From Nitrospirota bacterium (GTDB taxonomy: Bacteria; Nitrospirota; UBA9217), in the NCBI GenBank assembly GCA_035516155.1, contig DATJAP010000011.1, positions 38,288-102,287 on the forward strand: DNA of 64,000 bases. Direction: 5' to 3'. Below, piece after piece: positions 29,459-55,632 of the stretch. Position numbers and translations under genes: made by a program. Below the pieces are notes generated by a model, which searched no databases, was not told the origin of the DNA, and saw only the letters and a program-made list of their open reading frames with translations. Each line of letters opens with the position of its first letter. Position 1 is the first letter of the stretch.

Positions 29459-29800
29459 TCAAGCCTCTCCACTCCCACCTTCAACCGAGTCGACCGCAAT
29501 CTTTTCTGCTACGTCAAGGACCTTTTCCGCTGCCTGCTCGATAACTTCATCAGACGTTTTTGCCTTAGAAAGAATAAAAAAACCCTGTTTTTCAAGAAAG
29601 CTGATGATCTGCTCGTGTTTGATCTTATTTTCATCGAAATGCATTAATGCGCTGCCAGTAACAGGGTTGGTTTCTACCGACGTTATCCCTTCCAAACACC
29701 CTATAGCCTTTTCAAAAGTAGCCGCATTCTGCGGATTATCGTGGATGAATGGCGTTTGAATTCTTAGTCTGCCGGGGACATAATTATAATAATAATCCAT
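29459..29800 (-). CDS. Stand-alone HMA2-like (CxxC-less heavy-metal-associated-like) domain protein
   Basis: The ATG at 29800 is preceded by an AAGGAG RBS. The sequence MDYYYNYVPGRLRIQTPFIHDN...GITSVETNPVTGSALMHFDENKIKHEQIISFLEKQGF is paralogous to 43892, 45304 and 55216 in this window. Confidence 0.6.
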   Translation of the reverse strand: MDYYYNYVPGRLRIQTPFIHDNPQNAATFEKAIGCLEGITSVETNPVTGSALMHFDENKIKHEQIISFLEKQGFFILSKAKTSDEVIEQAAEKVLDVAEKIAVDSVEGGSGEA

Positions 29801-31135
29801 AAAATTCTCCTTTCTTAAACACCGATTATACAGAGGGAAGTTGATTATGTCCAGGTTCATTATGCCGTAACGACATACCAACCACTATGAACAATCGTAA
29901 CAAAAGAAAGATAGTGCAAGCATCGTAAAGACCCCGCCGACAACTACCACGATTAAGCCGCCAGTTTTTCCCCGACCGAACTCTCTTCGGTCAACTTGAG
30001 CTATGTCGGAAAATGCGGCGCTTTCTTTTTAAATGATGATCCATGGATCCGTGATTTCTTTCACTTCGGAATCCAGTACTTTGTTATCTTTCATGACGAT
30101 AGGAATATTATCTCCATGTCGAGCGGTACCGGCAATCACTCCGGAATTAAGCGTCACCGTCGTAACGTCGTTCATCCGGGCGCAAGAGTAACACGCAAAG
30201 CCGGGATCAGAATAATTTGAATCGTTTAGTAGAATTAACCCATCTTGTTCCGCAAAACTTTTTGGTTCTTGCGAGACTTGCTCTACGGAGTTTATCTAAT
30301 GTAAATATTACTGAAGAAATACAGCCGACGTTAGCCATTATCTTTACGTATAATCTATGCCTTTTCCCACGCGTTATCAAGAATATATTTCGGATGGACT
30401 AAACGTCACTAGTAAATCTATTAAACTGCAGCTCTTATCCTGATTCTATGGTTAACGATATCACAGTGGTGTTGCGGCAGATCGATGGCAACCGATGCCC
30501 GTTCTTGTGATCAAGGTATGAACTGTGTCCATAAATCGGATGACAAAGGGCCAATGATCTTTGGGCCCGGCTCTAAGTAGGGATACTTTGACGAGGGAAT
30601 ATCCTTGATTGAGAGAAAGATCTAAAATTGCGACGAATGAGGAACCCTTTACTCTAATTGTTGTTGACGGCGCTTTTATCCGTAGCCAGAGAGCTGATTA
30701 CATCAGCTTTGAAAACAATACCGTCTATATAATAATAAGAAAACGGTGTCGGACTTCACTGTTCGCCATGAAACCATTCACTGGAGTGCCAATGTGGGAA
30801 ATGAGGCTCACGGATCCGAATTATTTATCGCCTGAGCTTCTTACTGAATCATCCCTTCCTCAGGTGTTGCCGGAATATCTTTTATCGTGTAGAAATCGGA
30901 CGTGTAAATGGGTGGATAATGCAGAGGGAAGGGGAAGCCATCGGCTTTGCAGATACAGCGATTCGCCATGCAATATTGAGAGTCTTGGACAGGCGGCACA
31001 GCAAATCACGTGCTCGTGAAATTGAAAAACAGGATAGAGATTGCCATGAAGAGGTAAAATGAAATAGTCAGGAAGAGCTCAAGGCAAGCTGTCTGACTTT
31101 AAGAATCCCGGTGAAATCCGCGAGCAACCTTTTCC

Positions 31136-31398: not shown

Positions 31399-32256
31399 TC
31401 ATCTGCTCTTTATCACCCGCCCGGGAGACCGCTTCATAGTTGTCAGCGGGAGTGTGATCTCGACGATTGTTCCTTCTCCAGTCCTGCTGGACGCAGTGAT
31501 GTTGCCGCCCAGCGCGTTGACCAGATTTTTGACAATCCGGAGGCCCAGGCCGGGAGTATCTTGTTCCTGCACTTCAGAATCGTGCGTGTGATCGGAGACG
31601 TCGAATAGTTCCTTGACCTGTTCCTGAGTCATTCCTCTGCCGTTGTCCGCGACGGTCATCCGGAGGAGGTCGTCTTCCTTGCAGAGAATTATGGCCACGC
31701 GGCCCCGGTCGGTGAATTTAACCGCATTGCTCATAAGCTCTGTCATAATCCGGCTTATCATGGCGGGGTCGGATTCAATGACAAGTGGAGTTGCGGCGGA
31801 GACGTCCATAATGGTTAACGGTTTGTTGCCGGCCAGTCTACGCCCCGTCTGTGAAACTTCATCCAGAAGCGTTACGATGTCGAATTGTTCATATGCTGGT
31901 TCGGGAGGCTCCATCTCGATCCTCGCAAGATCAACGATATTGGAAATGACCGCGGAAAGGTTTGTGGCATCTCCTATGAGAAGCGAAAGCCTTTCCTGAA
32001 CGCTTTTGAGCTCTCCTTTCTGGTATGCCACTCGTACGAGCTCTGCCATGCCGAGAAGTTCGTAGAGCGCAGAGCCTGCGTCGCGTGTCGCCCGTGAGAC
32101 CTCGGGCGAGTGTGCACGAAGGTGGCCCGCGTTACCCCTGTGGCCGGGAGCACAAGATGCGTTTTGCGTCGGAGAGTGCAAAGCTTCGAGGACCGCCGGC
32201 ATGCATTGCAAAACGGTTTTTCTAGAGTAAGTTGAGGGACTCTGTGTCGGCTTCAT
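31399..32256 (-). CDS. Soluble histidine kinase (DHp + HATPase_c) without an obvious sensor domain
   Basis: The ATG at 32256 has an AAAGGAGAAACC RBS. N box is ELMSNAVKFT, G1 is DNGRGM, G2 is GLGLRIVKNL. The DHp region LYELLGMAELV is recognisable but the canonical SHExRTP H-box is not. The nearest His is in RAHSPEV. Confidence 0.8.
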   Translation of the reverse strand: MKPTQSPSTYSRKTVLQCMPAVLEALHSPTQNASCAPGHRGNAGHLRAHSPEVSRATRDAGSALYELLGMAELVRVAYQKGELKSVQERLSLLIGDATNLSAVISNIVDLARIEMEPPEPAYEQFDIVTLLDEVSQTGRRLAGNKPLTIMDVSAATPLVIESDPAMISRIMTELMSNAVKFTDRGRVAIILCKEDDLLRMTVADNGRGMTQEQVKELFDVSDHTHDSEVQEQDTPGLGLRIVKNLVNALGGNITASSRTGEGTIVEITLPLTTMKRSPGRVIKSR

Positions 32257-32288
32257 GGTTTCTCCTTTATGGCGATTAGTGCCGGAAG

Positions 32289-33422
32289 TCAATCAGCATT
32301 GCTTTCGCCGGGGAAATATCCGCTACCTCTCATGGTTAAAGTATCATTGTCAGGACTAAACCTTTCCATTTTCATCATCTGTTCAGCAGTTGTCCGTCGG
32401 TTAAGCACAAGCAACAGTATTGAGGCGAGGAATAGCAAAAAGTAAAATGTAAGAAAGCGCCAGCCGGCGGTCACGATTACGATAGCATCTGCCGGCAATA
32501 AAGAACGATAGGTAAGGTAGAAGATGGCCTCGGCGCCGCCCGTCCCTCCGGGTGAAGGAATGAATGCCACGAGTGCAAAGACAACAACCTGAAGTGCCAT
32601 GAACAGCAGCGGTTGGGACGGAATGCCGAGGCCCATCAGCAGCAAAGAGATAATTGAGTACCTGCATAACCACTGAACAGTCGTTAACGTCATGGTCAGT
32701 GCAAAAAATTTTTTTCCGGTACGGATGATGGCGTGGTAGGTACCGATAAAATTGCGATACGAGGAAATGAGCCGAACTGTTATGCTCCGCACGGCGGGAA
32801 ACAGCCTGTTTATCCCTTCCGATTGAAACAGGAGCAGGAAAAAGGCTGACAGGACGGCGACCGCTATTCCCGCCGCGGGCAGCCAGAAATGAGCGTGCCT
32901 CAGTGCGCTCAATCCGTTTTTCACGACCGGAAGGTTCCATGCTGACGAAAGAGTGAGCGTGACCGGCACCATGACGAGAAAAAAAAGGGCGTCCTCAAAA
33001 TTTTCCAGTAGTGTAAGCGAAAAGGCGGTGCCGGCGGAAAATTCCCGCTTCATCAGCAGTCCGATTTTTACCGGGCATCCGCCGATGAACGGCGGAGAGA
33101 CCGCCGCTCCGAGTTCGGCGCCGAGCACTATTTTGAATATGTCGCGATAGCGTATTTTCCCACCGAGAAATTTACCCCAGAGGAACAGTCGGAGCGAACC
33201 GGTGAACCAGGGCACGATGCTCAGGAGCAGGGCGACGGCCAGATATCCTGGCTTAACGCGTAAGGCAGCATGGAACGTCTCCCGGTCGACGGCCATAAGA
33301 CAAAATAAGACGTTCCCAATGACCCCGAGTGGTATGAGAAAGAACAGTTTGCCGAACAACCTTTCTGCCCCTGTTGTCGGGCGGGGGTGTTTTTCGCTTG
33401 TGAGGTTAGGCGCAGGTCGCAT
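32289..33422 (-). CDS. UPF0104 / lysyl-phosphatidylglycerol-synthase TM-region (MprF flippase-like) membrane protein
   Basis: About 8 TM helices. Family-typical start: LFGKLFFLIPLGVIGNVLFCLMAVDRETF...LLLSIVPWFTGSLRLFLW. It overlaps the upstream acyltransferase stop by 17 nt. Confidence 0.7.
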   Translation of the reverse strand: MRPAPNLTSEKHPRPTTGAERLFGKLFFLIPLGVIGNVLFCLMAVDRETFHAALRVKPGYLAVALLLSIVPWFTGSLRLFLWGKFLGGKIRYRDIFKIVLGAELGAAVSPPFIGGCPVKIGLLMKREFSAGTAFSLTLLENFEDALFFLVMVPVTLTLSSAWNLPVVKNGLSALRHAHFWLPAAGIAVAVLSAFFLLLFQSEGINRLFPAVRSITVRLISSYRNFIGTYHAIIRTGKKFFALTMTLTTVQWLCRYSIISLLLMGLGIPSQPLLFMALQVVVFALVAFIPSPGGTGGAEAIFYLTYRSLLPADAIVIVTAGWRFLTFYFLLFLASILLLVLNRRTTAEQMMKMERFSPDNDTLTMRGSGYFPGESNAD

Positions 33423-35247
33423 AGCGGTCGCGCTTTAACGCTTCATGATACGTCAGGAAGAGTTCGGCGCCTTCCTTGCCCATATACCGGTCCAGCATCC
33501 TGTGCTCCGTCTTGGTGAGGTCGACTATGATCAGACCATCGAGCACGTTTCCGAAAGCCGGATCAACATTGAACCCGGCGATCCTGCCGCCGAGCTTGAG
33601 GTATTGTTTCAGGAGTATCGGGATTCCCTTATTGTCCGATTCGATGGAGGATATCAATTCCGATATGTCCTCGATGTCGTCTTTGATGATCCTGACAGCG
33701 GCATCGACATCCCATCCTCTGAGCGATTTTGACTTAAGCGGCTTTCTGGCCTTTACCAATCCAGCCATATCATCCCGATACCGTGACATTTTTAAAAATT
33801 TGACGATCAGCTCTTTCGACAATGCCTGGTAGCCGTCGGTAATGCTGACAGGACCGAACAGTGTCTTGTAGTGGGGATTGTCTACAATGAACCGGCCAAT
33901 GCCTTTCCAGAGGAGCAGCAGCGGCGCATAGGACTTCTGGTATTCGAGACGGATGAAGGAGCGGCCCATTTCGAGTGAGGGACCGAGACGTTCGATAAAT
34001 TCAGGCTTATACCGGAAGAGGGTACTGGTGTAGAGACCCTTGAGACCGTATTTTTTAACGAGTTCGTCGGTTCTCCCGAGACGGTAGGCACCGACCACTT
34101 CCTGCTTCGCCCGGTTCCAGATGAACAGGTGGATATAGGTGCGGTCGAAGCGGTCAATATCCACCAGTTTCCCCGTCCCTTCGCCGACCGCGCGGAAGGT
34201 AATTTCGCGCAATCGTCCGATTTCCAGCACGATATTCGGGATCTGATCGGCCATGGCCTGTATTACGAACTGATCTCCGCTCTCAACCAGGGTTTGGCTC
34301 GGAGCAAGCCTGCGGAGTTCTTCGAGCATCATGTCAGGATTGCGGGGTGGCATAATGGCATTACCCGGGTCTTCTTTTTTTATCTGCAGGGAGGATGTAA
34401 AGCCACGGTATGCCTTACGGATTTGGCGAAGTTCCAGAAGATAGGTGCGTAACCTGAGATACTCCGACATGTCAGGGTCCTGCTCAAACGTCTTCAATCT
34501 ATCAAAGGGAATGAGGTCCCCGATGCGGAGCTGGATATTTTTGCGTCCTTTGTTGAGCAATTCGGCCGGCAGCATAGCCGTTCTGAGGAGAGGATGAACC
34601 ATTCCCGCCATGTGGAAGACCGCGCTGTTCGTGCCATGGAAAAATATGGGAAGCACTGGCGCCCCGGTTTTCCGGATGACCCCGGCAACAGTGGGGCTCC
34701 ACGTCGGGTCGGTTATTGTGCCTTTCTGGATATCGAAATGAGACACCGTGCCGGCGGGGAAGACAACGAGCATTCCGCCGTTCCTGACCCACTGGATGCT
34801 TTCCCGGAGCGGCTTGATATTTTCCTTCATCGCATGCTCCTGCTTGAAGGGATTCACCGGGATGAGCAGATCGCGCATTTCCGGAATTGCGGTAAGAAGG
34901 TGGTTTGCCATGAACTTTACATCGCAGCGAATCGATCGAAAGAGCGATGCTAAAATAATACCTTCAATGCCTCCGAAAGGGTGGTTTGCAACGACAATTA
35001 CGGGACCAGACGGTATCATAATTTTTGAAAGGTCCTTGTCGCTGAGATCATAGTTTACCTTCAGCTGTTCTAGGACCTTATCCGTGAATGGGCGGTTATC
35101 CGCCATCCGGGCGACGTCAGCGTATGCCTGGTTCAGCCGAGGAAAAGCGAGAACATGTTCAAGGGGACCCTTTACCATGGTGAAGAGCTTGTTCTGGAGA
35201 GGGTCGTTGAACTTAATGTCAAGGTTGAAAATACGGTCGTTGGTCAT
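33406..35247 (-). CDS. Bifunctional OlsF-like aminolipid synthase: N-terminal PlsC-type O-acyltransferase plus C-terminal OlsB/GNAT-type N-acyltransferase
   Basis: - N-terminal VIVVANHPFGGIEGIILASL and FPAGTVSH (lysophospholipid acyltransferase blocks).
- C-terminal FRAVGEGTGKLVDIDRFDRTYIHLFIWNRAKQEVVGAYRLGR...GLYTSTLF, typical of OlsB/hemolysin-like GNAT N-acyl amino acid synthases.
- The domain order is the same as described for OlsF. Confidence 0.75.
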   Translation of the reverse strand: MTNDRIFNLDIKFNDPLQNKLFTMVKGPLEHVLAFPRLNQAYADVARMADNRPFTDKVLEQLKVNYDLSDKDLSKIMIPSGPVIVVANHPFGGIEGIILASLFRSIRCDVKFMANHLLTAIPEMRDLLIPVNPFKQEHAMKENIKPLRESIQWVRNGGMLVVFPAGTVSHFDIQKGTITDPTWSPTVAGVIRKTGAPVLPIFFHGTNSAVFHMAGMVHPLLRTAMLPAELLNKGRKNIQLRIGDLIPFDRLKTFEQDPDMSEYLRLRTYLLELRQIRKAYRGFTSSLQIKKEDPGNAIMPPRNPDMMLEELRRLAPSQTLVESGDQFVIQAMADQIPNIVLEIGRLREITFRAVGEGTGKLVDIDRFDRTYIHLFIWNRAKQEVVGAYRLGRTDELVKKYGLKGLYTSTLFRYKPEFIERLGPSLEMGRSFIRLEYQKSYAPLLLLWKGIGRFIVDNPHYKTLFGPVSITDGYQALSKELIVKFLKMSRYRDDMAGLVKARKPLKSKSLRGWDVDAAVRIIKDDIEDISELISSIESDNKGIPILLKQYLKLGGRIAGFNVDPAFGNVLDGLIIVDLTKTEHRMLDRYMGKEGAELFLTYHEALKRDRYATCA

Positions 35248-35366
35248 GAGATCTCCTTACTTATTATGAATAGAGTCCAAAGTTCGGCGCTAAAGTTCAG
35301 AGTAAAATCAGGGGCAGGGGTTCACTCTCAAAACTTTGAACGCTGAACTCTGCACTTTTTTGCGAT

Positions 35367-36605
35367 CTACGCTACCTTTTCCCGTATTCTGTCCGTGATG
35401 CGGTAACCCCATGACCAGAATCCGGTCTCGGGGCAGGGCAACAAACAGGAGTCTTTCCCGATACGGTACCGGTTTCCGCGCCAAATCACGGTTGAACTTA
35501 TGAAGGGTACGAACCAAATTACGCCGATGATGAGGTCCTTGATCGGCGCTAGGAAATAGACGAACGGGGATTGTTTCTCTAACGTACTGTTACCCTCCCG
35601 CGACTCTAGGGTCCTGCCGATTATCGAATCACCGAGGATTTTGATAAGTCCTACAAGGGCTGTGAACGATAATGTGGTCCGTGAAAAACCTGACGCCAGG
35701 TTCGGGATCGCAGAGATAAAAACAGGGTTTGCAAGGAGCTCCGAGAAGTACTTATATCCGCCAATTTTCCATCTGAGTTTGCCCCATCGCGTGTGACGGT
35801 TCAGAAACCGCTTGATGCTCCAGAACTCATTAACATTGCTGACCAGGTGGTGGGAGAGGACCACTTTTTTCCCCGCCCGGGACATTTCCCTTCCGATTAT
35901 AAAATCCTCAGCCAAAATATCCTTGAAATTTTCGAGCCCGCCCAGCATGTTCAAGTCGTCCTTTTTCATGAGCATGGATTTACCGATGACGCAGGGCATA
36001 TTGAGGAAACGGTCGAGAAAACTGACGCTGCCGATAATAAAAGAGTTCAGATGAAGATTTTCAAACCGGGCGCCAATAGTGCGGCCGCCGATGCCTTTGA
36101 TCAGGTTGCTCACCAGCCCGACAGCCGGGTCCTCTGTATGACGCATGATTTCACGCAGATAGTTTTTTTCAACCATCACATTGCTGTCACTGATCAGGAT
36201 GTAAGGATGACGGGACCTCCGGTATGCAGGAACGAGATTGTTGATCTTGGGATTGAGCCCTGTTGCGCACCGCTCCACGATGATCGTGATATTTCTTTCC
36301 GGGTGTTTTTCCTGAATCTTTTTCGCTATTTTGTATGCGGGATCATTGTGGTCCTGGAGGGACAGCAGCAGCTCGTATTCGGGATAGTCCTGGGTGCAAA
36401 AGCTGGAAAGATTGTCGAAGAGATTATCGTCGAGCCCACGCAGGGGTTTGAGGATTGAGACGGGAGCTAATGCGTCGCTCGCGCAGTCCGATGCGATGGC
36501 AGCCCGGCCGTTCTTCCTGATGAGGTAACAGGCCGCTCCCGTCTGGAGTAGGTAAAGAACGATGCCTACGGCACAGATCGTTGCACAGAGGATAAAGGTA
36601 ATCAT
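35367..36605 (-). CDS. Membrane GT2/GT21-like glycosyltransferase (ceramide-glucosyltransferase-like)
   Basis: VSILKPLRGLDDNLFDNLSSFCTQDYPEYELLLSL, ISDSNV (DxD-like) and NRHTRWGKLRW ((Q/R)xxRW). N- and C-terminal TM helices. Confidence 0.75.
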   Translation of the reverse strand: MITFILCATICAVGIVLYLLQTGAACYLIRKNGRAAIASDCASDALAPVSILKPLRGLDDNLFDNLSSFCTQDYPEYELLLSLQDHNDPAYKIAKKIQEKHPERNITIIVERCATGLNPKINNLVPAYRRSRHPYILISDSNVMVEKNYLREIMRHTEDPAVGLVSNLIKGIGGRTIGARFENLHLNSFIIGSVSFLDRFLNMPCVIGKSMLMKKDDLNMLGGLENFKDILAEDFIIGREMSRAGKKVVLSHHLVSNVNEFWSIKRFLNRHTRWGKLRWKIGGYKYFSELLANPVFISAIPNLASGFSRTTLSFTALVGLIKILGDSIIGRTLESREGNSTLEKQSPFVYFLAPIKDLIIGVIWFVPFISSTVIWRGNRYRIGKDSCLLPCPETGFWSWGYRITDRIREKVA

Positions 36606-36655
36606 AATCCGCCTCCCGAAAGGTGATACATATAAGGCTAATCAATCGTCATCAT

Positions 36656-37348
36656 TCAGTTCCTGAATAGCGTGATTGCCACTCCTTTGTTGTGTCGGAT
36701 ACAGTTTTTCACCGCATCGACGTTTTTATCGCAGTTCAGCAACGTTTTCCAGGAGTAGAGGTGCCGTGCCTTGTGAAAGTCACTGTTCGCGATGTAGGGG
36801 TATTTTTTCAGGCTGATCACATTGAACACATCGTCCCGGTTGGCAATCTCCCAAGCATCGATGTATTTCGAGTATTTATCTCGGTTGTTCCACAAAAAGA
36901 GCGTGTCGGGGTTTAAGATGTCTGGAGTATGGTGGGGATGACAGGCGATAGTCAGTGCATCCTGGCGCTTTGCGTCAAGAAAAATCTCTTCATAATCCAT
37001 ACACGCGGGGACGAATTCCTTGATGTCGAGAAGCAGGAAATGAGCGGATTCATCCTTGGAGAGGTGGTTCTTGGTGATTTCAACTCCGGGAATCACGAGC
37101 ATTTCATATTTGTCCCACGCCCGTTTCGCTTCGGTCCGTATGGTGGAAAGGTACTCGTCAAAATTGTCTCCCCGGACCGACAAGTTGAAGTGTCGCGCGA
37201 ATTTCCCCAATGTGTTGTCACCATTTACCACATGGTCCGTGATGGCAATTACGTCGAATCCCGCCTGGCCGAAAAGATCTATGGTCTTGCTCATCTCCAC
37301 TGAGCCGTCCGAAAAGGTCGTGTGAATATGAAAGTCACACAGCATCAT
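36656..37348 (-). CDS. PHP-domain metal-dependent phosphoesterase
   Basis: CDFHIHTTFSDGS, IAITDHV, ACHPHH and NSDFH match the PHP histidine/aspartate motifs. Confidence 0.8.
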   Translation of the reverse strand: MMLCDFHIHTTFSDGSVEMSKTIDLFGQAGFDVIAITDHVVNGDNTLGKFARHFNLSVRGDNFDEYLSTIRTEAKRAWDKYEMLVIPGVEITKNHLSKDESAHFLLLDIKEFVPACMDYEEIFLDAKRQDALTIACHPHHTPDILNPDTLFLWNNRDKYSKYIDAWEIANRDDVFNVISLKKYPYIANSDFHKARHLYSWKTLLNCDKNVDAVKNCIRHNKGVAITLFRN

Positions 37349-37381
37349 TGTCGAAATTATATGGGACGTCTATTACGGAGG

Positions 37382-37410
37382 TATTACGAAAATATTAAGT
37401 TCTTGTTACA
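37382..37410 (+). promoter_or_regulatory. 11-bp-phased direct repeats TATTACG / TATTAAG / TGTTACA upstream of the PHP gene
   Basis: The heptamers start at 37382, 37393 and 37404. They lie 34-66 bp upstream of the PHP start codon (37348, minus strand). Confidence 0.4.
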
Positions 37411-37454
37411 GAAAGAAATATTCTGAGGAGTGGGGTAATTCAATGCCGGTCATT

Positions 37455-37730
37455 TCATGGTAAGTGTTTTTCTTTTTTGATCGGCATCATCGTGACGAGG
37501 TCGGCCGGCCGCCGGCATTCGAGCACGAGCGACTTGACGAGTTCCTCGATATGCTCTTGGCTGACGAATTGATCGGGGACCATGGAAAGGACAGCTTTTT
37601 TTTCACAGTGCTCATACGTTTCCCCGCCTTCGATCATGTCATAATCGACAACGGTCACCTGAACAGGTGATGTTGAAAATATTTCGGCCACAACACCGCT
37701 TTCAATTCTGATAATAATGGAATTATTCAT
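37455..37730 (-). CDS. Hypothetical small acidic protein
   Basis: The ATG at 37730 is preceded by AAGGGAGA. 91 aa with no recognised domain. It sits between the GH1 and PHP genes on the same strand. Confidence 0.35.
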   Translation of the reverse strand: MNNSIIIRIESGVVAEIFSTSPVQVTVVDYDMIEGGETYEHCEKKAVLSMVPDQFVSQEHIEELVKSLVLECRRPADLVTMMPIKKEKHLP

Positions 37731-37838
37731 ACATCTCCCTTTTTTCATAGTTGATCGGTTCGAAGAACTGGAAATCTCGATGCCGATGAGGGTAGCAAAG
37801 CATTGTTAATGTGCGATTACGTTCAGGTGAAGCTTTTC

Positions 37839-39101
37839 TTACATATGAGACCGGCTTTGGATAAGGTAGGAGTAGTAGGAGGCCGCGCTGGTCGGCGTAC
37901 GCTTGAGCGTCTTGAAGTCAACCCGGTACAGCCCGAACCGCGCATCGAGACCCTGAAGCCACTCGTAGTTGTCGATGAGGGTCCAGTAGTAATATCCCCG
38001 GATGTCGAGACCCTCCTTGAGACACCGTTCGATCACGTCAATGTGCCGCTTCATGTATTTCACTTTTTCCTCTGTATCATGCGTTGCGATGCCGTTCTCG
38101 GTGATTACGATCGGCAGGTTGAGCCGCGACGCGTATCGAAGGACCTTGGCGAGGCCGCGGGGGTGGATTTCCCATCCGAGATTCGTGAGCCCGTGTCCGT
38201 CGATGTCGAGGTGCCGGAGCTCGACTCCCATTTTTTTGAAGGGATTGAAGCGGAGGTGGATTCGGGTATAGTAATTCACGCCGAAAAAATCGAGCTTGTC
38301 CTTAATCGGAACCTCAATCTCCACCTGGCGAGAAAAAGGGAATTTGATGATGAAGATTCCTGTACGGAACGCGTTGATGATAGAGTGATTGTAAAAGTAG
38401 TTTGCCGTCTTCTTCAGAAGCCGGTCAAGAGGGTTCCATGTTTTCCAGGGAGCAAAAACAGACATGTTGTGCGCAACGCTCACTCGGGCATCAGGAATGT
38501 ATCGGTGAATGATGTCATAGGCCTTGCCGTGGGACGCAAAGATGTTTTTCAATGCAACGAGGGCGCGGGGCACATCCCGCAGTCCCGGAGGCATACATCC
38601 GTCCATATAACCGCCGATGATTATGACATAGGGTTCGTTGAATGTTATCCAGGTGCGCACATTCCTGAGAGTCGAAACCATCATTTCGGTGTACCGTAGA
38701 AATTTCTCAATGGATGCGGTCCGGTGCCAAGGTGTCCGCTCCAGAAACCAGCGCGGGTGAGTAAAGTGGTGGAGCGTAACCATCGGTTCGATGTGGTAGC
38801 TGTGAAGGATATCAATGATCTCCTGGTAGTGAGCGATCGCTTCCTCGTCCCATGTGTCGGGCCGGGGCTGAATCCTGCTCCACTCCAGGGAAAACCGGTA
38901 CGAGTTGACGCCAAGCTCCTTCAGCAGCTTGAGGTCCTCCCGGAACATGGCATAGTGGCTCGTGATCTGCGGCATGTCTCTGAGTACGGGATCCCAAACA
39001 GTCCAATCCGCATTCGGAGAACCTTCGAGTTGAAACGCCGAGGTTGCCACGCCCCACTGAAAATCCTTGGGAAAAACCTTTTCCTTCGAATGTTCCCTCA
39101 T
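37839..39101 (-). CDS. Glycoside hydrolase family 1 (beta-glucosidase-like)
   Basis: FQWGVATSAFQLEGS N-terminal signature. Acid/base ITFNEPYV. Nucleophile VITENGIA. Confidence 0.85.
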   Translation of the reverse strand: MREHSKEKVFPKDFQWGVATSAFQLEGSPNADWTVWDPVLRDMPQITSHYAMFREDLKLLKELGVNSYRFSLEWSRIQPRPDTWDEEAIAHYQEIIDILHSYHIEPMVTLHHFTHPRWFLERTPWHRTASIEKFLRYTEMMVSTLRNVRTWITFNEPYVIIIGGYMDGCMPPGLRDVPRALVALKNIFASHGKAYDIIHRYIPDARVSVAHNMSVFAPWKTWNPLDRLLKKTANYFYNHSIINAFRTGIFIIKFPFSRQVEIEVPIKDKLDFFGVNYYTRIHLRFNPFKKMGVELRHLDIDGHGLTNLGWEIHPRGLAKVLRYASRLNLPIVITENGIATHDTEEKVKYMKRHIDVIERCLKEGLDIRGYYYWTLIDNYEWLQGLDARFGLYRVDFKTLKRTPTSAASYYSYLIQSRSHM

Positions 39102-39220
39102 GTAAGCGCCGGTATCCTCCGCCTTAACGCCAATGAAGTATCATTAAAATAAGTCCCGCCATGGAGACCACGATAAGGACAGCATCCTCGATTTTTTTTA
39201 AACAAGCCTTGTTTAGACAG

Positions 39221-39646
39221 TTATCCATGATTCACCTCTTCAGCTTCGAAGGATTTCTCCGGTGAAAATACCACGGCCAGTGTCCTGATGCAGCCGATCA
39301 CGAGGATCAGGATTGCGAGAGCTAGGATCATCCCTTGTTGCAGGGTGTGTTCGTAGAGCCCAATCATGATTTCGCGGAGTACGAAAACCAGTGCGGCATC
39401 TGTAATAAAGGTTATTTTAAGACGGTGTACGGTAAAATATTCGATGATGCTTCGAAGCAACTCGATGACGACGAACAGGGAAAGAATGTTGGTCACCATC
39501 ATGTCGAAGGCCGCCGCGATGGTGCGGCTCCCGAATACGGCTCGAAGGTCAAGAATGACCCGCGCGATCCCCATTAAAAGAGCGATGATCACGAGCGGGA
39601 TCATAAATTTAATCATGGTGTCGACGATTTTCGTGAAGTATTTCAT
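39221..39646 (-). CDS. psiE: PsiE-family (phosphate-starvation-inducible) membrane protein
   Basis: 141 aa with four TM helices. The central block FVVIELLRSIIEYFTVHRLKITFITDAALVFVLREIMIG parallels E. coli PsiE (FEFIALIVKYF...LRYFVYIGITAIVRLIIV). Confidence 0.55.
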   Translation of the reverse strand: MKYFTKIVDTMIKFMIPLVIIALLMGIARVILDLRAVFGSRTIAAAFDMMVTNILSLFVVIELLRSIIEYFTVHRLKITFITDAALVFVLREIMIGLYEHTLQQGMILALAILILVIGCIRTLAVVFSPEKSFEAEEVNHG

Positions 39647-39730
39647 GGCCCCTTGCCCGACGCGTCATGGTTGGCCGCCCTGGAACTCCGTGCGCTAAAC
39701 CGCTCATGTTAGGACATACTGTCATGATTT

Positions 39731-39759
39731 CATTACACAACCGTTACCAATTTGTTACA
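39731..39759 (+). promoter_or_regulatory. 11-bp-phased direct repeats CATTACA / CGTTACC / TGTTACA
   Basis: The heptamers start at 39731, 39742 and 39753 in the psiE-like/hemerythrin divergent intergenic region. Confidence 0.45.
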
Positions 39760-39839: not shown

Positions 39840-39857
39840 TGTAACATTTCTGTAACA
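39840..39857 (-). promoter_or_regulatory. Tandem TGTTACA-N4-TGTTACA (read on the minus strand), Pho-box-like
   Basis: The plus strand reads TGTAACATTTCTGTAACA. The minus strand reads TGTTACAGAAATGTTACA. It includes the 11-mer GAAATGTTACA that recurs at 43216 and 55564. It lies ~195-210 bp upstream of the psiE-like start. Confidence 0.5.
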
Positions 39858-40233
39858 CGGCTGTTTTACAATTACTACGGTTGCGCCATGCTGGGGACTC
39901 CTGACGCCCGGCGCATGATCTGAGCAATGCCTTTGATTTCACTTCGACGACTTCATCCGGGCATTGAAGAGATAGAGTCAAAATCTTACCAATACTTAAG
40001 ACACGGAGTGGACCGGGAAGCGCTTAATACACGAATATTTATACGCTTCCTGCGTTTTTGCTCTATCACTATTCACCACGTTTTGAATTATATTGTACCC
40101 ACTAATTTACTCGTGGTAAAATAGCAATATTGGACGCATTCCCCTAATCCGAAGGATTTTGGGAGGATGGCGAATGCGCGTATTTCAGCCGGCGCATATC
40201 AATACTATTTGCATGGAAGTTCTAAGAGGAGTT

Positions 40234-40641
40234 ATGGGTTACTTAAAATGGAACAATCGGTATTCAGTCCATGTGGATGAAATAGACAAACAGCACCAGA
40301 AGCTTATCAACCTGATCAATGAAATGTATGACGCCATGCAAGCCGGCAAGGGCGGGGAAATTATAGATACTGTCGTCGATCGGTTCGTTGATTACACGGT
40401 TTATCATTTCAACACCGAAGAACGGTTGTTGCAGCAGCATGGTTATCCAAAGTATGATGCTCACAAGGAGATGCACGACAATATTGCCAAAAAGGCCCGT
40501 GACCTTAAGGAAACATTGGAAAAAGGGAACAAACCATCGAACATCGATGTCATGCTTCTGCTGACAAACTGGCTAAACGCTCACATCCTTGAGGAAGATA
40601 AGAAATACGCGCCTCACATTGCTTCCAAAGCAAATCCCTGA
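40234..40641 (+). CDS. Bacteriohemerythrin
   Basis: The ATG at 40234 follows an AAGAGGAG RBS. WNNRYSVHVDEIDKQHQKLINLIN, YTVYHFNTEERLL, HKEMHD and WLNAHILEEDKKY carry the hemerythrin His/Glu/Asp iron ligand pattern. Confidence 0.85.
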   Translation: MGYLKWNNRYSVHVDEIDKQHQKLINLINEMYDAMQAGKGGEIIDTVVDRFVDYTVYHFNTEERLLQQHGYPKYDAHKEMHDNIAKKARDLKETLEKGNKPSNIDVMLLLTNWLNAHILEEDKKYAPHIASKANP

Positions 40642-41513: not shown

Positions 41514-42224
41514 TCATTCCCCCTCGACATAGTATCCCACGCCACGCCGCGTTTTCACAAACAGGGGCCGGGCCGGGTCGTCTTCAATATGTGTCCTCAG
41601 CCTTCTGATATGGACGTCGACCGTCCTGGGTTCAACGAACGTGTCATCCTGCCACAACGCATCGAGCAACTGGTCGCGGCTGAACACCTTCCCTCTGCGT
41701 TCAACGAGATAGAGAAGGAGCCTGAACTCGGTTGAACTCAGGTTCAGCGGAACATTGTTTTTGCTTACGATGTAGCGTTCCTTGTCGATGCGTAGATTGT
41801 GGACGGTGAGGACACTTTCCTGCGTTTTCCTGCCGGCTCCTCTCCGGAGTACGGCATTTACGCGGGCAGTGAGTTCCTTGGGGCTGAACGGCTTCGTCAT
41901 GTAGTCGTCGGCACCTGTTTCGAGGCCCTGTACCCTGTCGGTTACATCGCTTTTGGCCGTCAGCATGATGATCGGCATAGATGCCGTTTTCGGATTGCTT
42001 CGAATTATGCGGCAGAGCTCGGTTCCCTGAAGGCCCGGAAGCATAAGGTCGAGAATGACAAGGCTGTATCCGCCTTTCTTGATCTTATCTAGGGCCTCCT
42101 CGCCATCGGACGCAGAGGAAACTTTGAACCCTTCCCGTGTGAGATTATAGGTGACAAGCTCCACAAGATCGGGTTCATCATCAACAACGAGTATACGTAT
42201 TGTCTGCGCAGCGGCTACGCTCAT
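41514..42224 (-). CDS. OmpR/PhoB-family response regulator (PhoB-like)
   Basis: Receiver: RILVVDDEPDLVELV...LVILDLMLPG...MLTAKSDVTDRVQGLETGADDYMTKPFSPKEL, near-identical to the PhoB signature. Winged helix: STEFRLLLYL...FVEPRTVDVHIRRLR...VKTRRGVGY. Confidence 0.85.
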   Translation of the reverse strand: MSVAAAQTIRILVVDDEPDLVELVTYNLTREGFKVSSASDGEEALDKIKKGGYSLVILDLMLPGLQGTELCRIIRSNPKTASMPIIMLTAKSDVTDRVQGLETGADDYMTKPFSPKELTARVNAVLRRGAGRKTQESVLTVHNLRIDKERYIVSKNNVPLNLSSTEFRLLLYLVERRGKVFSRDQLLDALWQDDTFVEPRTVDVHIRRLRTHIEDDPARPLFVKTRRGVGYYVEGE

Positions 42225-42267
42225 AGGGTATCCAGAACACAGGATTCAAATAATTGAGAATTCGTTA

Positions 42268-42555
42268 TTATTTTGTGGTATCTTCTTTAAGAACCTTCAG
42301 GTATGTCCTGCACCTCGGATACCGGGAACATCGGAAGCGAAGTATTGTTTGCTCATCGCGGTAGAGGTGCATCGGATTCCCGCACGCTGCGCACAACGGC
42401 CTGCCCTTTACCCTCATGCGCTGTGAAACAGTAAATTGCATGCCGCACATCAAGCAGAGATAACGTTGATTGCCTGTCCGCGCTTTCCCATCGCGGTAAA
42501 CTGTTATTGATTGACAGGCCGGACATTGGATATTTTCGATTGTGTCTTTAGACAT
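42268..42555 (-). CDS. Double zinc-ribbon protein (InsA-like N-terminal ribbon + second Cys4 ribbon), paralog of 55197-55535
   Basis: CPAC-x16-C-x2-CG-x-QF, then RPLCAACGNPMHLY...LRFRCSRYPRCRTY. It lies 43 bp upstream of the PhoB-like regulator on the same strand. Confidence 0.6.
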   Translation of the reverse strand: MSKDTIENIQCPACQSITVYRDGKARTGNQRYLCLMCGMQFTVSQRMRVKGRPLCAACGNPMHLYRDEQTILRFRCSRYPRCRTYLKVLKEDTTK

Positions 42556-42674
42556 TCTGACTACTTATACTGAGAAGTTTGTTGTATAGAACAGTTCGGT
42601 GCACGTGTGAGAAACGTGTGGATGTCAATAATGATCCCGAAATGAAGTTTTGCTGATTTCTAGGCGTCTGGCCA

Positions 42675-42905
42675 TCATCCGTGCCGCAGTCGTGCCTTAA
42701 CGCTCCGGCTGACAAGGACCGGCAGAAAGGCCCTTATCCTGGCCTCCTTTTTCAAAACATCCAAATCAGCCATATAATATTGTCGAATTTCATCGGCGGG
42801 CAGCTGAAGTTCCTGAGCGAGTTTCTGAATAGCGCGGGAATGCTGATCAACTTCCTTTTCATCACCGCGTAACAAGCCAGACGGTATTGTGGGCTTTTGA
42901 TCCAT
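42675..42905 (-). CDS. DUF3562-like small protein
   Basis: The ATG at 42905 follows an AAGAAGGAG RBS. AIQKLAQELQLPADEIRQYYMADLDVLKKEARIRAFLPVLVSRSVKARL fits the DUF3562 pattern known from sulfate reducers. Paralog at 50200. Confidence 0.55.
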   Translation of the reverse strand: MDQKPTIPSGLLRGDEKEVDQHSRAIQKLAQELQLPADEIRQYYMADLDVLKKEARIRAFLPVLVSRSVKARLRHG

Positions 42906-42974
42906 GGCGATCTCCTTCTTTCTCCGCGTCAGAGGTGGAAAGCGATAACCCCCCCCGGTGTTGCCGAGCATTTT

Positions 42975-43121
42975 CTACCCCCGAAGAATTTTTGCGAGGA
43001 ACAGCGGGCAGCGATCGTAATCTTCCGTACAGCAATAAAGCGCCTTCCGGCGCGTATCGATAGCCACAGTCATAATCGACGCTGAACAGAATATGCTTTC
43101 CGCCTTCCAATAGGGGCACAT
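42975..43121 (-). CDS. Small Cys-rich protein
   Basis: The sequence is MCPYWKAESIFCSASIMTVAIDTRRKALYCCTEDYDRCPLFLAKILRG (6 Cys in 48 aa). It sits immediately upstream of the DUF3562 gene. The RBS is weak and the alternative TTG start at 43205 is not excluded. Confidence 0.3.
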   Translation of the reverse strand: MCPYWKAESIFCSASIMTVAIDTRRKALYCCTEDYDRCPLFLAKILRG

Positions 43122-43150
43122 GAATGCGTGAACGTTTGCCTCTTTTGTAC

Positions 43151-43237
43151 TGTTACAGACTATTGACCGAGATATATACAAGTTCACCTTGCTCTTTCTT
43201 CGCAACTATAACGTGGAAATGTTACAGTAATATTACA
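43151..43237 (+). promoter_or_regulatory. TGTTACA elements: single at 43151, tandem TGTTACA-N4-TATTACA at 43220-43237
   Basis: The region contains ggaaatgttacagtaatattacaaat (GAAATGTTACA at 43216-43226). It lies in the divergent region between the Cys-rich/DUF3562 genes and the DUF5132-ATPase operon. Confidence 0.45.
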
Positions 43238-43586: not shown

Positions 43587-43895
43587 ATGGCACTTTTGGA
43601 CGATGGTTTGAAAGGTAATCTGGTCACAGGTCTTGCTATTGGCGTAGGAGCGGCAATATTAGCACCTGTCGTAATACCTTTGTTTGCCAATATTGCGAAA
43701 CCGTTGGCGAAAGCGGCGATCAAAGGAGGGATACAGCTTTATGAGCGCGGTAAGGAAACTTTTGCCGAGGTCGCTGAAATAACCGAGGATATTGTGGCGG
43801 AAGCAAAGGCGGAGCTGTCGGAAGCTGCTGCGGCAGCGGCGGCGCCAGCAGCGGCGGCAGTAGCGGCGCCACCGGACGAGACACACGCGTCATGA
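43587..43895 (+). CDS. DUF5132-like small membrane-anchored protein
   Basis: AAAGGAGATCATGAT RBS. N-terminal hydrophobic GxxxG-type segment GLAIGVGAAILAPVVIPLF, then AKPLAKAAIKGGIQLYERGKETFAEVAEITEDIVAEAKAEL and an Ala/Pro tail. ATGA overlap with the next gene. Confidence 0.6.
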   Translation: MALLDDGLKGNLVTGLAIGVGAAILAPVVIPLFANIAKPLAKAAIKGGIQLYERGKETFAEVAEITEDIVAEAKAELSEAAAAAAAPAAAAVAAPPDETHAS

Positions 43896-44365
43896 TACGG
43901 GATGCAGTGGTATCGCATAACTCGCGGGGAAGGTTCCGGGTAAAAATCGCCTCGTTGAAAGGTGATAGAGAGGCGATTAATGTCTGCAAGGAACAATTTA
44001 TGCGTTGCCCGGGTATCAACACGGTGGAGGTGAACGCGCTGACGGGAAGCATGCTCTTTCTGCACGAGACGAGCATGGCCGCCATTACTGAGTACGCGCG
44101 AACGAAAGATATCTTTATCTTGCGAGAGCAAGGGTCTAACCCGGGGAATTTTCACCAGAATATAACTGAAACGTTCAAAGGAATCGATAACAAAATCAAG
44201 AGCTTGACCGACGGAGAGATGAACATGGGTGGAGTGGCATTCGTCGTTCTACTGGGAGCGGGGGCCATCCAGGTTCTCAGTGGAAACGCTGGCGCGCTTC
44301 CTTGGTACGGTGCATTCTGGTACGCATTCAATATTTTTTTAAAGTCGAAGGAGCCGGAAAAGTAG
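43892..44365 (+). CDS. HMA2-like domain protein with a C-terminal hydrophobic anchor
   Basis: N-terminal GRFRVKIASLKGDREAINVCKEQFMRCPGINTVEVNALTGSMLFLHE (HMA2-like, no CxxC). C-terminal MGGVAFVVLLGAGAIQVLSGNAGALPWYGAFWYAFNIF. Confidence 0.65.
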   Translation: MIRDAVVSHNSRGRFRVKIASLKGDREAINVCKEQFMRCPGINTVEVNALTGSMLFLHETSMAAITEYARTKDIFILREQGSNPGNFHQNITETFKGIDNKIKSLTDGEMNMGGVAFVVLLGAGAIQVLSGNAGALPWYGAFWYAFNIFLKSKEPEK

Positions 44366-48300: not shown

Positions 48301-48480
48301 GGTTTAAGCCCGCTGGGGCCAGTGGACGCCTTAATAGCCATAGGGAGCGCAGTCGTGCCGCTTCTCATTAACGAAGCAACAAAGACACGCGCCATTACCG
48401 TTCCACAGCAGACGAAACAGGGCGATTCCCCAGTCGCAGCCGGGGAGCCGGAAAACATTCGTTTAGACGCGGTTATGTGA
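45304..48480 (+). CDS. P2-type (SERCA/PMCA-like) cation-transporting P-type ATPase with an N-terminal HMA2-like domain
   Basis: - GTG start after AAAGGGGGG.
- N-terminal KGRVRYKVDGLYRS...GILNVSVNTLTGSVLILYD.
- Core motifs LTGESMPV, ICLDKTGTITMN, TGDGINDGPALKAADIGIAMG and TM4 AVPEGLPT (P2-type rather than the CPC/SPC of P1B). Confidence 0.9.
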   Translation: MIQTVHAAVKGRVRYKVDGLYRSESLKQHIEQGLVQHEGILNVSVNTLTGSVLILYDIRNGNGNDAVAVAGLLKEIVESHPAGSSAGGVEREKRRPRAVAASPITRSDDPGFARGSTPPVHPQAGGKNPSLRKVRSQVVHAEEQPEDLWHCMTRQEVLHQWDASGSTGLSLESALRRAAQYGPNLLPESVPRSGWSIFFDQFKSLPVGLLGIAAGISVFTGGIADAVVILGVVMINAAIGYTTERQTEKTIHGLKSLVQPVSTVIRGNALQDIDAKDIVPGDLLVLRPGSYVAADARLLDLNYLSVDESALTGESMPVNKTKGKLQSPDIPLGDRTNMVYMGTLVTGGQGLAVVVATGRYTEMGKIQTLVGTARPPDTPMERQMDRMGIQLVIISSAVCGIVFIIGLLRGYGFLQMLKTSIALAVAAVPEGLPTIATTTLALGIRRMRELNVLIRHLDAVEALGAVQTICLDKTGTITMNRMSVVEVHAGLRRFTVFDGRISADGTTINPYSNDEILRLVHLSVLCNESTVSRQEGEYSVQGSSTENALVHMALAVGVDVNALRSQYSLVKINHRSEDRHYMSTIHRAGEGQGLLALKGSPSEVLSMCQWYLKDGERLLLDDHARELLDKENERMAGDALRVLAVCYALADEKALNNGDGFEEGLTWVGLVGMADVVRAGVKNLMGTFHRAGIDTVMITGDQGPTAYAIGKELNLSKDEELEILDSSHLSQLDPEVMTALAGRVNVFARVSPANKLQIVQALQSAGKVVAMTGDGINDGPALKAADIGIAMGHTGTDVAREVADVVLEDDNLETMVIAISQGRTVYNNIRKSVRFLLATNMSEIMVMFTAMAGGMGQPLNVMQLLWINLISDIFPGLALALEPPEPDILSRPPRNPNEPIIKPGDFKRILFESSTISAGSLAAYGYGLARYGQGAEAGSMAFMSLCTGQLLHAISCRSETHSIFDSDRLATNKYLTVALAGSLSIQTATMFVPGLRRFLGLSPLGPVDALIAIGSAVVPLLINEATKTRAITVPQQTKQGDSPVAAGEPENIRLDAVM

Positions 48481-55585: not shown

Positions 55586-55632
55586 TTTATCATTGCCATG
55601 AACGTCTATCAGGACTCGCAATTTGGCATATT

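Follow-up and report, generated by a model that had tools for sequence, protein, structure and literature searches.

A predicted Pho-regulated gene cluster for phosphorus-free membrane lipids in a Nitrospirota bacterium

Eight neighbouring genes in a Nitrospirota bacterium (GenBank assembly GCA_035516155.1, contig DATJAP010000011.1) raise a question: do they serve to exchange the cell's phospholipids for lipids that contain no phosphorus when phosphate runs out? The genes lie at positions 31399-39646 of a 64,000-nucleotide stretch of that contig (positions 38,288 to 102,287 of the forward strand), which is the whole of the DNA analysed and is called the window here. An initial annotation had described them as a phosphate-starvation lipid cluster under PhoB-type control. 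That description has stood up well: the motif found at the cluster also precedes pstS in related genomes, where pstSCAB-phoU adjoins the cluster, as it does in many metagenomic loci. We consider it likely that these genes form a Pho-regulon cluster that swaps phospholipids for phosphorus-free lipids at phosphate depletion, by the steps proposed below.

Gene families were assigned with Pfam and NCBIfam profile scans, and transmembrane-like (TM-like) segments were identified by hydropathy. The eight open reading frames (ORFs) of the initial annotation are present, all co-oriented on the minus strand, and its family calls for the PsiE, GH1, PHP, GT21, OlsF-type and UPF0104 proteins were reproduced in these scans. 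In the order of transcription, with lengths in amino acids (aa), they are:

39221-39646, minus strand: PsiE, 141 aa (Pfam PsiE 40.1 bits, cut-off 23.9)
37839-39101, minus strand: GH1, 420 aa (Pfam GH1 291 bits)
37455-37748, minus strand: small protein of no family, a 97-aa ORF whose likely start is M7 at 37730, giving 91 aa
36656-37348, minus strand: PHP, 230 aa (Pfam PHP 33 bits, cut-off 26.4)
35367-36605, minus strand: GT21, 412 aa (Pfam Glyco_transf_21 150.6 bits, cut-off 21.7)
33406-35247, minus strand: OlsF-like fusion, 613 aa (Acyltransf_2 and Acetyltransf_5)
32289-33422, minus strand: flippase-like UPF0104 protein, 377 aa (LPG_synthase_TM 102.6 bits)
31399-32292, minus strand: histidine-kinase-like (HK-like) ATPase, at most 297 aa (start uncertain; HATPase_c 85 bits)

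Counted from the 31399 end toward psiE, the genes are set apart by overlaps of 4 and 17 bp and then by gaps of 119, 50, 106, 90 and 119 bp. The PHP, GH1, OlsF-like and HK-like proteins have no TM-like segments. An Rfam scan of the window gave no matches.

Is the cluster under phosphate control? The exact heptamer TGTTACA occurs 13 times in the window, against 4 expected, and tandem pairs phased at 11 bp (at most two mismatches) occur 7 times, against 0.18 in shuffles. In all five related genomes that carry pstS within the fetched DNA (loci L003, L004, L006, L007 and L032), a perfect or near-perfect TGTAACA-N4-TGTAACA stands in the sense of transcription 48-64 bp before the pstS start. Because the same phased motif precedes pstS in these relatives, the arrays are, as judged by motif and position, the Pho box of this lineage. 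A position matrix trained only on the five pstS promoters was tested on 92 related loci, in which 16 of the 18 pstS promoters left out of training scored higher than the background's 99th percentile. We then took the median best score over the 150 nt upstream of each gene, for which the 95th percentile of background is 7.6. This median was 20 for a porin gene found in relatives, 16.4 for PHP, 13.6 for psiE, 12.6 for the regulator described below and 9.6 for the small ORF; GT21, OlsF, the flippase, the HK-like ATPase, GH1, pstB and phoU scored between -4 and 1, which is to say that they have no box. The corresponding features in the window are:

39720-39759, minus strand: psiE promoter boxes, four 11-bp-phased half-sites (TGTAACA, GGTAACG, TGTAATG, CATGACA)
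37804-37821, minus strand: weak Pho-box-like pair before the small ORF (CGTAATC-N4-ATTAACA)
37356-37410, minus strand: PHP promoter, with half-sites at 37371-37410 (TGTAACA, CTTAATA, CGTAATA, CGTAATA), TATAAT at 37356-37361 and the ATG at 37348

Since boxes precede psiE, PHP and, more weakly, the small ORF, and none precedes GT21, OlsF, the flippase or the HK-like gene, the cluster comprises several transcription units and is not the single operon first proposed. There are two or three Pho-box-headed units: psiE, perhaps together with GH1; PHP-GT21-olsF-flippase-HK-like; and perhaps the small ORF as a unit of its own. The 119-bp gap between psiE and GH1 contains a weak terminator-like hairpin. 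The arrays had also been said to flank and interrupt the cluster; they do lie upstream of psiE and inside the cluster, but the downstream (31399) end has none.

The two main promoters are built differently. At psiE, the half-sites are followed after 8 nt by a -10-like TAACAT (39706-39711) and then by a leader, about 60 nt long, that contains a ribosome-binding site; the array recurs at the same position in L001, L004 and L007. At PHP, the minus strand reads TGTAACA-agaa-CTTAATA-tttt-CGTAATA-cctc-CGTAATA-gacgtccca-TATAAT-ttcgaca-ATG, so that the half-sites are followed by 9 nt, a consensus -10 box and 7 nt that lead up to the start codon, without a Shine-Dalgarno sequence. Among 62 distinct orthologous PHP upstream regions, the four phased half-sites are kept in 48, 51 carry a TAnnnT whose end lies 6-10 nt ahead of the ATG (50 of them with half-sites too), and only 3 have a Shine-Dalgarno-like motif. 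From sequence rather than from transcript mapping, we infer that the PHP transcript is leaderless and PhoB-dependent; the promoter layout is conserved in about 50 of the 62 regions.

A candidate for the regulator lies 2 kb upstream of the cluster:

41514-43237, minus strand: regulator unit, with a Pho box at 43216-43237 (26.4 bits) followed by DUF3562, zinc-ribbon and PhoB-like genes
42675-42971, minus strand: DUF3562 small protein of this unit
42268-42555, minus strand: InsA-type zinc-ribbon protein of this unit, 95 aa
41514-42224, minus strand: PhoB-like OmpR-family response regulator (NCBIfam PhoB TIGR02154, 264 bits, cut-off 296; top of 99 matches)

This is probably the cognate regulator unit. 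A strong box stands with DUF3562 and zinc-ribbon genes ahead of the regulator, and this layout fits autoregulation. As to whether the regulator is PhoB itself, its best family match is PhoB and the lineage has 11-bp direct repeats before pstS; the score lies below the equivalog cut-off. The regulator region (about 1 kb) is 79-82% nucleotide-identical in L001 and L090, the DUF3562 homologue in L004 has a Pho box of its own, and no histidine kinase gene adjoins the PhoB-like gene.

The same box was observed elsewhere. Two further arrays lie in the window:

39840-39868, plus strand: second Pho-box array, TGTAACA-N4-TGTAACA-N4-TGTTTTA (23.0 bits at 39840-39861)
55546-55596: strong array of up to five phased half-sites (24.9 bits at 55564-55585)

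The first stands about 290 bp before a bacteriohemerythrin gene (40159-40641, plus strand), and a hemerythrin gene is the divergent neighbour of psiE in L001 as well. The second lies just past the stop codon of a radical SAM gene, about 240 bp before a small HMA_2-domain gene (54845-55306, minus strand). In relatives, a DESULF_POR1-like outer-membrane porin (464 aa; 6335-7729 in L003) was seen in five loci (L003, L111, L125, L126 and L133), each time with a Pho box; it would be a PhoE-like phosphate-starvation porin of this lineage.

Which of the eight genes belong together? The nearest OlsF-like proteins, up to 91% identical, come from metagenome-assembled genomes, some of them Nitrospirota; the exact sequence of the window's OlsF-like protein had no entry on record. 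Three relatives with OlsF identities of 82%, 70% and 60% keep the order PHP-GT21-OlsF(-flippase)-HATPase, and in two of the three the cluster runs on into two-component genes and then pstS-pstC-pstA-pstB-phoU. Genes found nearby in relatives encode PsiE (orthologues 78-96% identical, preceding GH1), GH1, the phosphonoacetate hydrolase PhnA, a YfcE-family phosphodiesterase, a purple acid phosphatase and the Pho-box porin. Among 80 genome loci retrieved with an OlsF alignment, PHP-GT21-OlsF occurs only in 7 loci, all labelled Nitrospirota; with the separately examined loci, they total 11, and pstSCAB-phoU is within 10 kb in 5 of them. The OlsF-like genes of other phyla, Desulfovibrionaceae included, are 45-53% identical and have no such neighbours.

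A metagenome scan with a GT21 alignment, of which the 80 best loci were taken (GT21 55-92% identical), separated the cluster into modules. PHP lies directly upstream of GT21 in 55/55 loci with at least 1 kb of upstream sequence, and this adjacency persists down to 55% GT21 identity while the other neighbours vary; PHP and GT21 are therefore the invariant module. GH1, found in 21 of the 29 loci whose upstream sequence reaches 3.5 kb or more, is a frequent third member, and the trio GH1-PHP-GT21 occurs without OlsF, and outside any Pho island, in L086. OlsF directly follows GT21 in 16 of 36 loci and is absent from the other 20. The flippase-like gene comes directly after OlsF in 15 of 20 OlsF loci and elsewhere in the locus in one more, whereas none of 19 OlsF-less loci has it (16/20 vs 0/19; Fisher p = 1.5e-7). 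OlsF and the flippase are a separable second module, joined in the window by the 17-bp overlap of the flippase-like gene with the olsF stop. The UPF0104 call in the initial annotation is right as to family, but the gene co-varies with OlsF and not with GT21.

We turn to the enzymes, and first to PHP. A profile of 30 PHP orthologues matched PDB entry 2ANU (TM0559 of Thermotoga maritima) with E 4e-73 over residues 2-229, and by this comparison PHP is assigned to the TM0559 family. Nine residues are invariant in the 30 orthologues (H7, H9, D14, H39, E90, H103, H137, D190 and H192), with metal ligands assigned from family motifs, not from a structure superposition. The protein has neither a TM nor an amphipathic segment by hydropathy. 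Its NCBIfam match to the CehA/McbA metallohydrolase domain, a family whose name-giving members are carbamate hydrolases, is weak (52 bits, cut-off 80). It has no Metallophos match, and its fold differs from that of PlcP; a search for Metallophos (PlcP-type) proteins near the cluster in relatives returned only the YfcE-family protein of L004. An AlphaFold2 model built from 30 close orthologues was poor (mean predicted local distance difference test score 64) and its fold search returned 2ANU and generic PHP proteins, so no substrate was deduced from it. In the literature, TM0559 and 2ANU were found in incidental mentions, and no functional study of them was found. PHP is predicted to be a metal-dependent phosphoesterase that either supplies the lipid acceptor of GT21 or else frees phosphate from a phosphoester.

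The proposal that PHP removes phospholipid head groups draws on its strict synteny with GT21, on the leaderless promoter that they share and on a fusion protein encoded elsewhere in the window:

56973-59384, minus strand: PHP-GT4 protein, 803 aa, with a PHP-type N-terminal domain and a lipid-type GT4

Its N-terminal domain matches PHP_C (23 bits), and the PHP domain is weak in the window protein but scores 25.7 bits in a homologue. For the GT4 part, the top NCBIfam matches are the N-acetylglucosaminyl-phosphatidylglycerol synthase GpgS and monoglucosyl-diacylglycerol synthase. The promoter (59385-59425) mirrors that of PHP: GGTAATC-N4-TGTAATA, 9 nt, TATAAA, 7 nt, ATG. In L031, L061 and L076, which are labelled delta-proteobacterial or Desulfobacterales, homologues with about 40% identity are encoded at a distance of 4-6 kb from olsF and close to pstS, phoH and an alkaline phosphatase gene. 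The protein probably serves as a second glycolipid synthase under Pho control, Agt-like and with its own phosphoesterase built in. BLASTP found no significant similarity between the 230-aa PHP and the N-terminus of the 803-aa protein, and the fusion therefore supports the PHP step by analogy only. Directly downstream of the PHP-GT4 gene lies that of a radical SAM protein (438 aa, Radical_SAM and Fer4_12; 55633-56949, minus strand), for which lipid or sugar modification is possible; the pairing recurs in the Desulfobacterales locus L076 (14372-15730).

The GT21 protein has an RHTRW motif at residue 270, as expected of (Q/R)xxRW in Glyco_transf_21 proteins, and TM-like segments at 2-20, 312-330 and 348-366, which give an N-terminal TM segment, a cytoplasmic GT-A domain and C-terminal TM segments. 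Ceramide glucosyltransferase is its sole solved relative in the PDB (E 1e-39). The lipid acceptor may be of the diacylglycerol (DAG) type, the ether-glycerol type or the ceramide type. Assignment to the hopanoid enzyme HpnI was considered and rejected as the main interpretation; the score is under the cut-off and the partners hpnJ and hpnK are missing. Neither the cluster nor the flanks fetched from relatives showed a YdjC-type deacetylase.

GT21 enzymes invert and so form beta-glycosides, and GH1 enzymes cleave or transfer beta-glycosides; the two enzymes thus match stereochemically. The cluster's GH1 has the family motifs NEP155 (acid/base), ENG335 (nucleophile) and DNYEW377, and its best single-domain PDB match is 1VFF, the BGPh of Pyrococcus horikoshii (280 bits, full-length; 420 vs 423 aa). 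BGPh is membrane-associated, and its preferred substrates are long-alkyl beta-glucosides; for a close relative, hydrolysis of steryl glucosides is described (PMC4687101). We predict that the cluster's enzyme is a cytoplasmic retaining beta-glycosidase of this short, BGPh-like type, acting on a beta-glycosyl lipid.

The 613-aa protein has the two-domain architecture of OlsF, with a PlsC-type Acyltransf_2 at 61-272 and an OlsB-like Acetyltransf_5 at 346-447, and the OlsF model (NCBIfam NF052615) aligns over residues 23-589 with 412.5 bits, against an equivalog cut-off of 620. It is predicted to be an OlsF-like bifunctional aminolipid synthase, with an ornithine-type acyloxyacyl aminolipid as its product. 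An OlsF homologue of Desulfovibrio alaskensis G20 (Dde_3661) is needed for ornithine lipids under phosphate limitation (PMC5193443); Serratia olsF is preceded by a Pho box, and the OlsF of Flavobacterium johnsoniae also makes lysine lipids (PMC12971839). In a 2024 PNAS paper on the lipidome of sulfate reducers (PMC11181052), the gene and enzyme terms that we sought do not occur.

The protein encoded next to it carries LPG_synthase_TM at residues 38-332, with about eight TM-like segments, and matches TIGR00374 with 83.4 bits (cut-off 43.2). It has this domain alone and no synthase domain, which makes it a stand-alone UPF0104/PplT-type protein and not an MprF; a match to the glucosaminyl-phosphatidylglycerol (GlcN-PG) flippase model is weak (65 bits, far below cut-off). 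It is predicted to translocate the aminolipid. A 2026 review of ornithine lipids says nothing of a flippase.

The remaining three, PsiE, the 91-aa protein and the HK-like ATPase, we class as conserved accessories. PsiE, of an inner-membrane protein family, has the Pfam match, four TM-like segments and the upstream Pho-box array, but reaches only 26.9 bits against the NCBIfam equivalog cut-off of 138. The small protein, which had been called acidic, is indeed small, yet its acidity is only mild (15 D+E vs 12 K+R); it is a cytoplasmic protein with no match in Pfam or NCBIfam, and orthologues were found in L001 (76% identical), in L085 (52%) and, by tblastn, in many loci (52-76%). The last protein had been read as a soluble histidine kinase. 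Its HATPase domain is real, with N, G1 and G2 boxes (HATPase_c_2 35 bits), but there is no HisKA match in Pfam and no invariant histidine in an alignment of four orthologues, and it does not qualify as a sensor histidine kinase. It is kept at the end of the unit in relatives (13059-13940 in L003; 11305-12138 in L004), where genes for a hybrid kinase, a kinase and a receiver-only protein come between it and pstS. It may take part in the phosphate response as a signalling component of a non-canonical kind.

How might these proteins act together? In the scheme that we propose, the PhoB-like regulator would bind the 11-bp-phased TGTAACA half-sites and activate at least two promoters, one before psiE(-GH1) and a second, leaderless one before PHP-GT21-olsF-flippase-HK-like. 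PHP would strip the phosphate-containing head group from a phospholipid, or act on phosphatidate, freeing phosphate and leaving a DAG-, ether-glycerol- or ceramide-type acceptor, which GT21, with a uridine diphosphate (UDP)-sugar, would turn into a beta-glycosyl lipid. In function, the PHP-GT21 pair would in this way correspond to the PlcP-Agt and PlcP-Pgt pairs known from Proteobacteria. The OlsF-like fusion would make an ornithine-type acyloxyacyl aminolipid, which the translationally coupled UPF0104 protein would carry to the outer leaflet, and the BGPh-like GH1 would trim, transglycosylate or recycle the head group of the beta-glycolipid at the cytoplasmic face of the membrane.

Several observations weigh against this scheme. 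The chemistry of the cluster is deduced throughout, comparison reaching as far as family membership. The OlsF, PsiE, PhoB and HpnI matches all fall under their NCBI equivalog cut-offs, and the best NCBIfam match of GT21 is HpnI (TIGR03472, 240 bits, cut-off 310), not a DAG glycosyltransferase. In the window, the PHP promoter exceeds the 95th percentile of shuffles only narrowly (17.7 vs 16.8 bits), and co-transcription of GH1 with psiE, across the weak hairpin, is no more than possible. Furthermore, the TM0559 family is broad, with members in Thermotoga, Aquifex, methanogens, Asgard archaea and many candidate phyla. Among the matches listed, identity to TM0559 is 52-74%, with homologues at 52-58% in Aquifex, archaea and many other phyla. 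In Thermotoga, Aquifex and Methermicoccus its genes stand alone, with no glycosyltransferase or lipid gene as neighbour; that of T. maritima lies alone beside ferritin and corA. For so broad and solitary a family, a generic soluble substrate is plausible, and the lipid-specific reading of PHP is weakened accordingly. We know of no PHP-family enzyme with a demonstrated action on lipids.

These last points bear on the alternative that survives best, namely that the cluster is a Pho-regulated lipid cluster in which PHP is a soluble, phosphate-scavenging phosphoesterase and not the supplier of the acceptor. Its substrates could be phosphoethanolamine or glycerol-3-phosphate released by another phospholipase, nucleotides such as adenosine 3',5'-bisphosphate (pAp), or the UDP that GT21 produces. 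The family spans archaea and bacteria, whose lipids differ in backbone and stereochemistry, and its genes stood alone in all three genomes examined; the characterised PHP enzymes (HisJ, TrpH-type 3',5'-bisphosphate phosphatases and RNase AM), which are also the next structural neighbours, use soluble phosphoesters, and the hydropathy of PHP agrees with a soluble life. Moreover, the phosphatases that free phosphate from the phospho-alcohol products of PlcP are described as unknown (PMC3972451). However, a general scavenger would have no reason to adjoin GT21 at every one of 55 loci while other Pho genes shuffle, and the fusion of a separate PHP-type domain to a lipid-type GT4 argues for linked substrates. 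We regard the scavenger as possible, though on balance unlikely.

If PHP does supply the acceptor, the lipid itself can be questioned. GT21 could make a glycosyl-ceramide or a glycosyl-(di)ether-glycerol, with PHP as a phosphodiesterase of sphingo- or ether-phospholipids and GH1 acting in the manner of a glucosylceramidase. The GT21 family is that of the ceramide glucosyltransferases, the only PDB match is such an enzyme, and Agrobacterium Pgt takes ceramide as well as DAG, but favours DAG (PMC3972451). Monoglycosyl-ceramide and -diether lipids track Thermodesulfovibrionia in phosphorus-poor serpentinite fluids, and Thermodesulfovibrio is reported to have ceramide-synthesis genes (PMC10667739), a link by reason of which we do not narrow the acceptor to DAG; that correlation is, however, not organism-resolved. 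Caulobacter is reported to make glycosphingolipids when starved of phosphate (PMC6445935). Against such a product, no gene of sphingolipid or ether-lipid biosynthesis was seen in the cluster or the fetched flanks, and we hold it to be unlikely.

It is quite improbable that the genes are mere neighbours in a Pho island without a common pathway, OlsF and GT21 alone being lipid-related and GH1 and PHP having their place in the metabolism of carbohydrates or nucleotides. The porin, PhnA, YfcE and the regulators do come and go between genomes, and OlsF and GH1 are absent from 20 of 36 and 8 of 29 GT21 loci, respectively. Yet the unbroken adjacency of PHP and GT21 behind a common promoter, the persistence of the GH1-PHP-GT21 trio outside a Pho island in L086, and the preference of the nearest characterised GH1 relative for lipid-like aglycones all speak for a shared task.

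The last alternative, an S-D-F aminoglycolipid system in which GT21 transfers N-acetylglucosamine (GlcNAc), PHP N-deacetylates and UPF0104 flips the glucosaminyl lipid, could appeal to the top match of GT21 being the GlcNAc transferase HpnI, to the GlcN-PG flippase and CehA/McbA matches, and to the established pattern of glycosyltransferase, hydrolase and UPF0104 protein (PMC12713373). It is very improbable: both the HpnI and the GlcN-PG flippase scores are far under their cut-offs, the residues at all phosphoesterase-typical metal-ligand positions of PHP are invariant, and the flippase-like gene tracks OlsF, being missing from 19/19 OlsF-less PHP-GT21 loci. We also know of no PHP-family deacetylase, which counts against it as well.

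To return to phospholipid replacement, its most specific form joins three proposals: that the TM0559-family PHP is a new, non-PlcP intracellular lipid phosphoesterase feeding GT21, that the OlsF-coupled UPF0104 protein is an ornithine-lipid flippase, and that GH1 is a dedicated glycolipid-remodelling glycosidase. All three together are a genuine but tentative possibility, which we put short of an even chance. The activity of PHP would then be that of a phospholipase C or of a phosphatidate or ceramide-phosphate phosphatase. The UPF0104 protein would be, to our knowledge, the first candidate for an ornithine-lipid flippase.

Does the cluster correspond to a known system? The plcP-agt and plcP-plus-pgt arrangements of Alphaproteobacteria, SAR11 and Pseudomonas share with it Pho-box control and a phosphoesterase gene directly before a lipid glycosyltransferase gene (PMC3972451). 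The predicted outcome is also alike, phospholipid being turned into DAG and then into glycolipid with recovery of phosphate (PMC3972451; PMC4796936). The proteins differ, PlcP being a calcineurin-type metallophosphoesterase and Agt a GT4 enzyme, whereas the cluster has a PHP (TM0559) fold and GT21. Pgt of Agrobacterium tumefaciens and Mesorhizobium loti resembles the cluster's GT21 at the level of family, in being a membrane glycosyltransferase related to ceramide glucosyltransferases. It was reportedly placed in GT21 by Holzl et al. in 2005, and we know of no description of it with an adjacent PHP or GH1 gene. It is processive, makes beta-configured di-glycosyl DAG under phosphate deprivation and has a predicted Pho box (PMC3972451).

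The OlsF proteins of Serratia proteamaculans, Flavobacterium johnsoniae, Vibrio cholerae (VC0489) and D. alaskensis G20 share the domain order and the context of phosphate limitation; the cluster's protein differs from them in being at most 53% identical to homologues outside Nitrospirota, in sitting in a PHP-GT21 unit and in its coupling to UPF0104. The gpgSDF unit of Pseudomonas aeruginosa and the hexSDF unit of Clostridioides difficile each combine a transferase, a hydrolase and a stand-alone MprF-type flippase protein (PMC12713373), but with a GT4 enzyme and a deacetylase where the cluster has GT21 and a PHP phosphoesterase, and in the cluster the flippase tracks the aminolipid synthase and not the glycosyltransferase. 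The archaeal BGPh is like the cluster's GH1 in its short size and full-length match; a hydrophobic mound and a positive ring are features of BGPh. We know of no report that connects BGPh with phosphate or with a glycosyltransferase. TM0559 belongs to the same family as the cluster's PHP, but its gene is alone and that of the cluster is always paired with GT21. In our literature searches, no description was found of the PHP-GT21 pair, of a Nitrospirota Pho box or of an aminolipid flippase, nor any report of remodelling genes in Thermodesulfovibrionia-type Nitrospirota. What is specific to the cluster is the obligate pairing of PHP with GT21, the coupling of OlsF to the flippase-like gene, a GH1 of lipid type and a leaderless Pho promoter that is conserved; the remodelling logic itself is expected.

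In anoxic and subsurface settings, where Thermodesulfovibrionia-type Nitrospirota are prominent, lipids free of phosphorus are used to indicate phosphate stress, and TGTAACA-N4-TGTAACA would offer an experimentally tractable Pho box for the phylum. If PHP does replace PlcP, a function would be at hand for the widespread TM0559/PHP family and for 2ANU, an orphan of structural genomics. The cluster would further provide a candidate translocator for ornithine-type aminolipids and a physiological context for membrane-associated short GH1 enzymes, which are already in industrial use on steryl glucosides. Should only the ordinary parts hold, it would still be a clean example of glycolipid and aminolipid genes under Pho control, from a phylum that has been little studied.

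The surroundings of the cluster contain genes of other kinds. Small HMA_2-domain genes lie around it at 29459-29881 (minus strand), 43892-44365 (plus strand) and, as noted above, 54845-55306 (minus strand). Two P-type cation ATPases, one of them with an N-terminal HMA_2 domain, are encoded at 45304-48480 and 51131-53770 (both plus strand), and an S-adenosylmethionine synthetase at 48645-49844; in L086 a neighbourhood of HMA_2, ATPase and S-adenosylmethionine synthetase genes also stands beside GH1-PHP-GT21. Positions 1-28000 of the window hold a long series of co-oriented plus-strand ORFs. On the far side of the lipid cluster of L001 are genes of the Wzz/GNVR, Poly_export and ParA-like types, a set suggestive of polysaccharide export in that relative.

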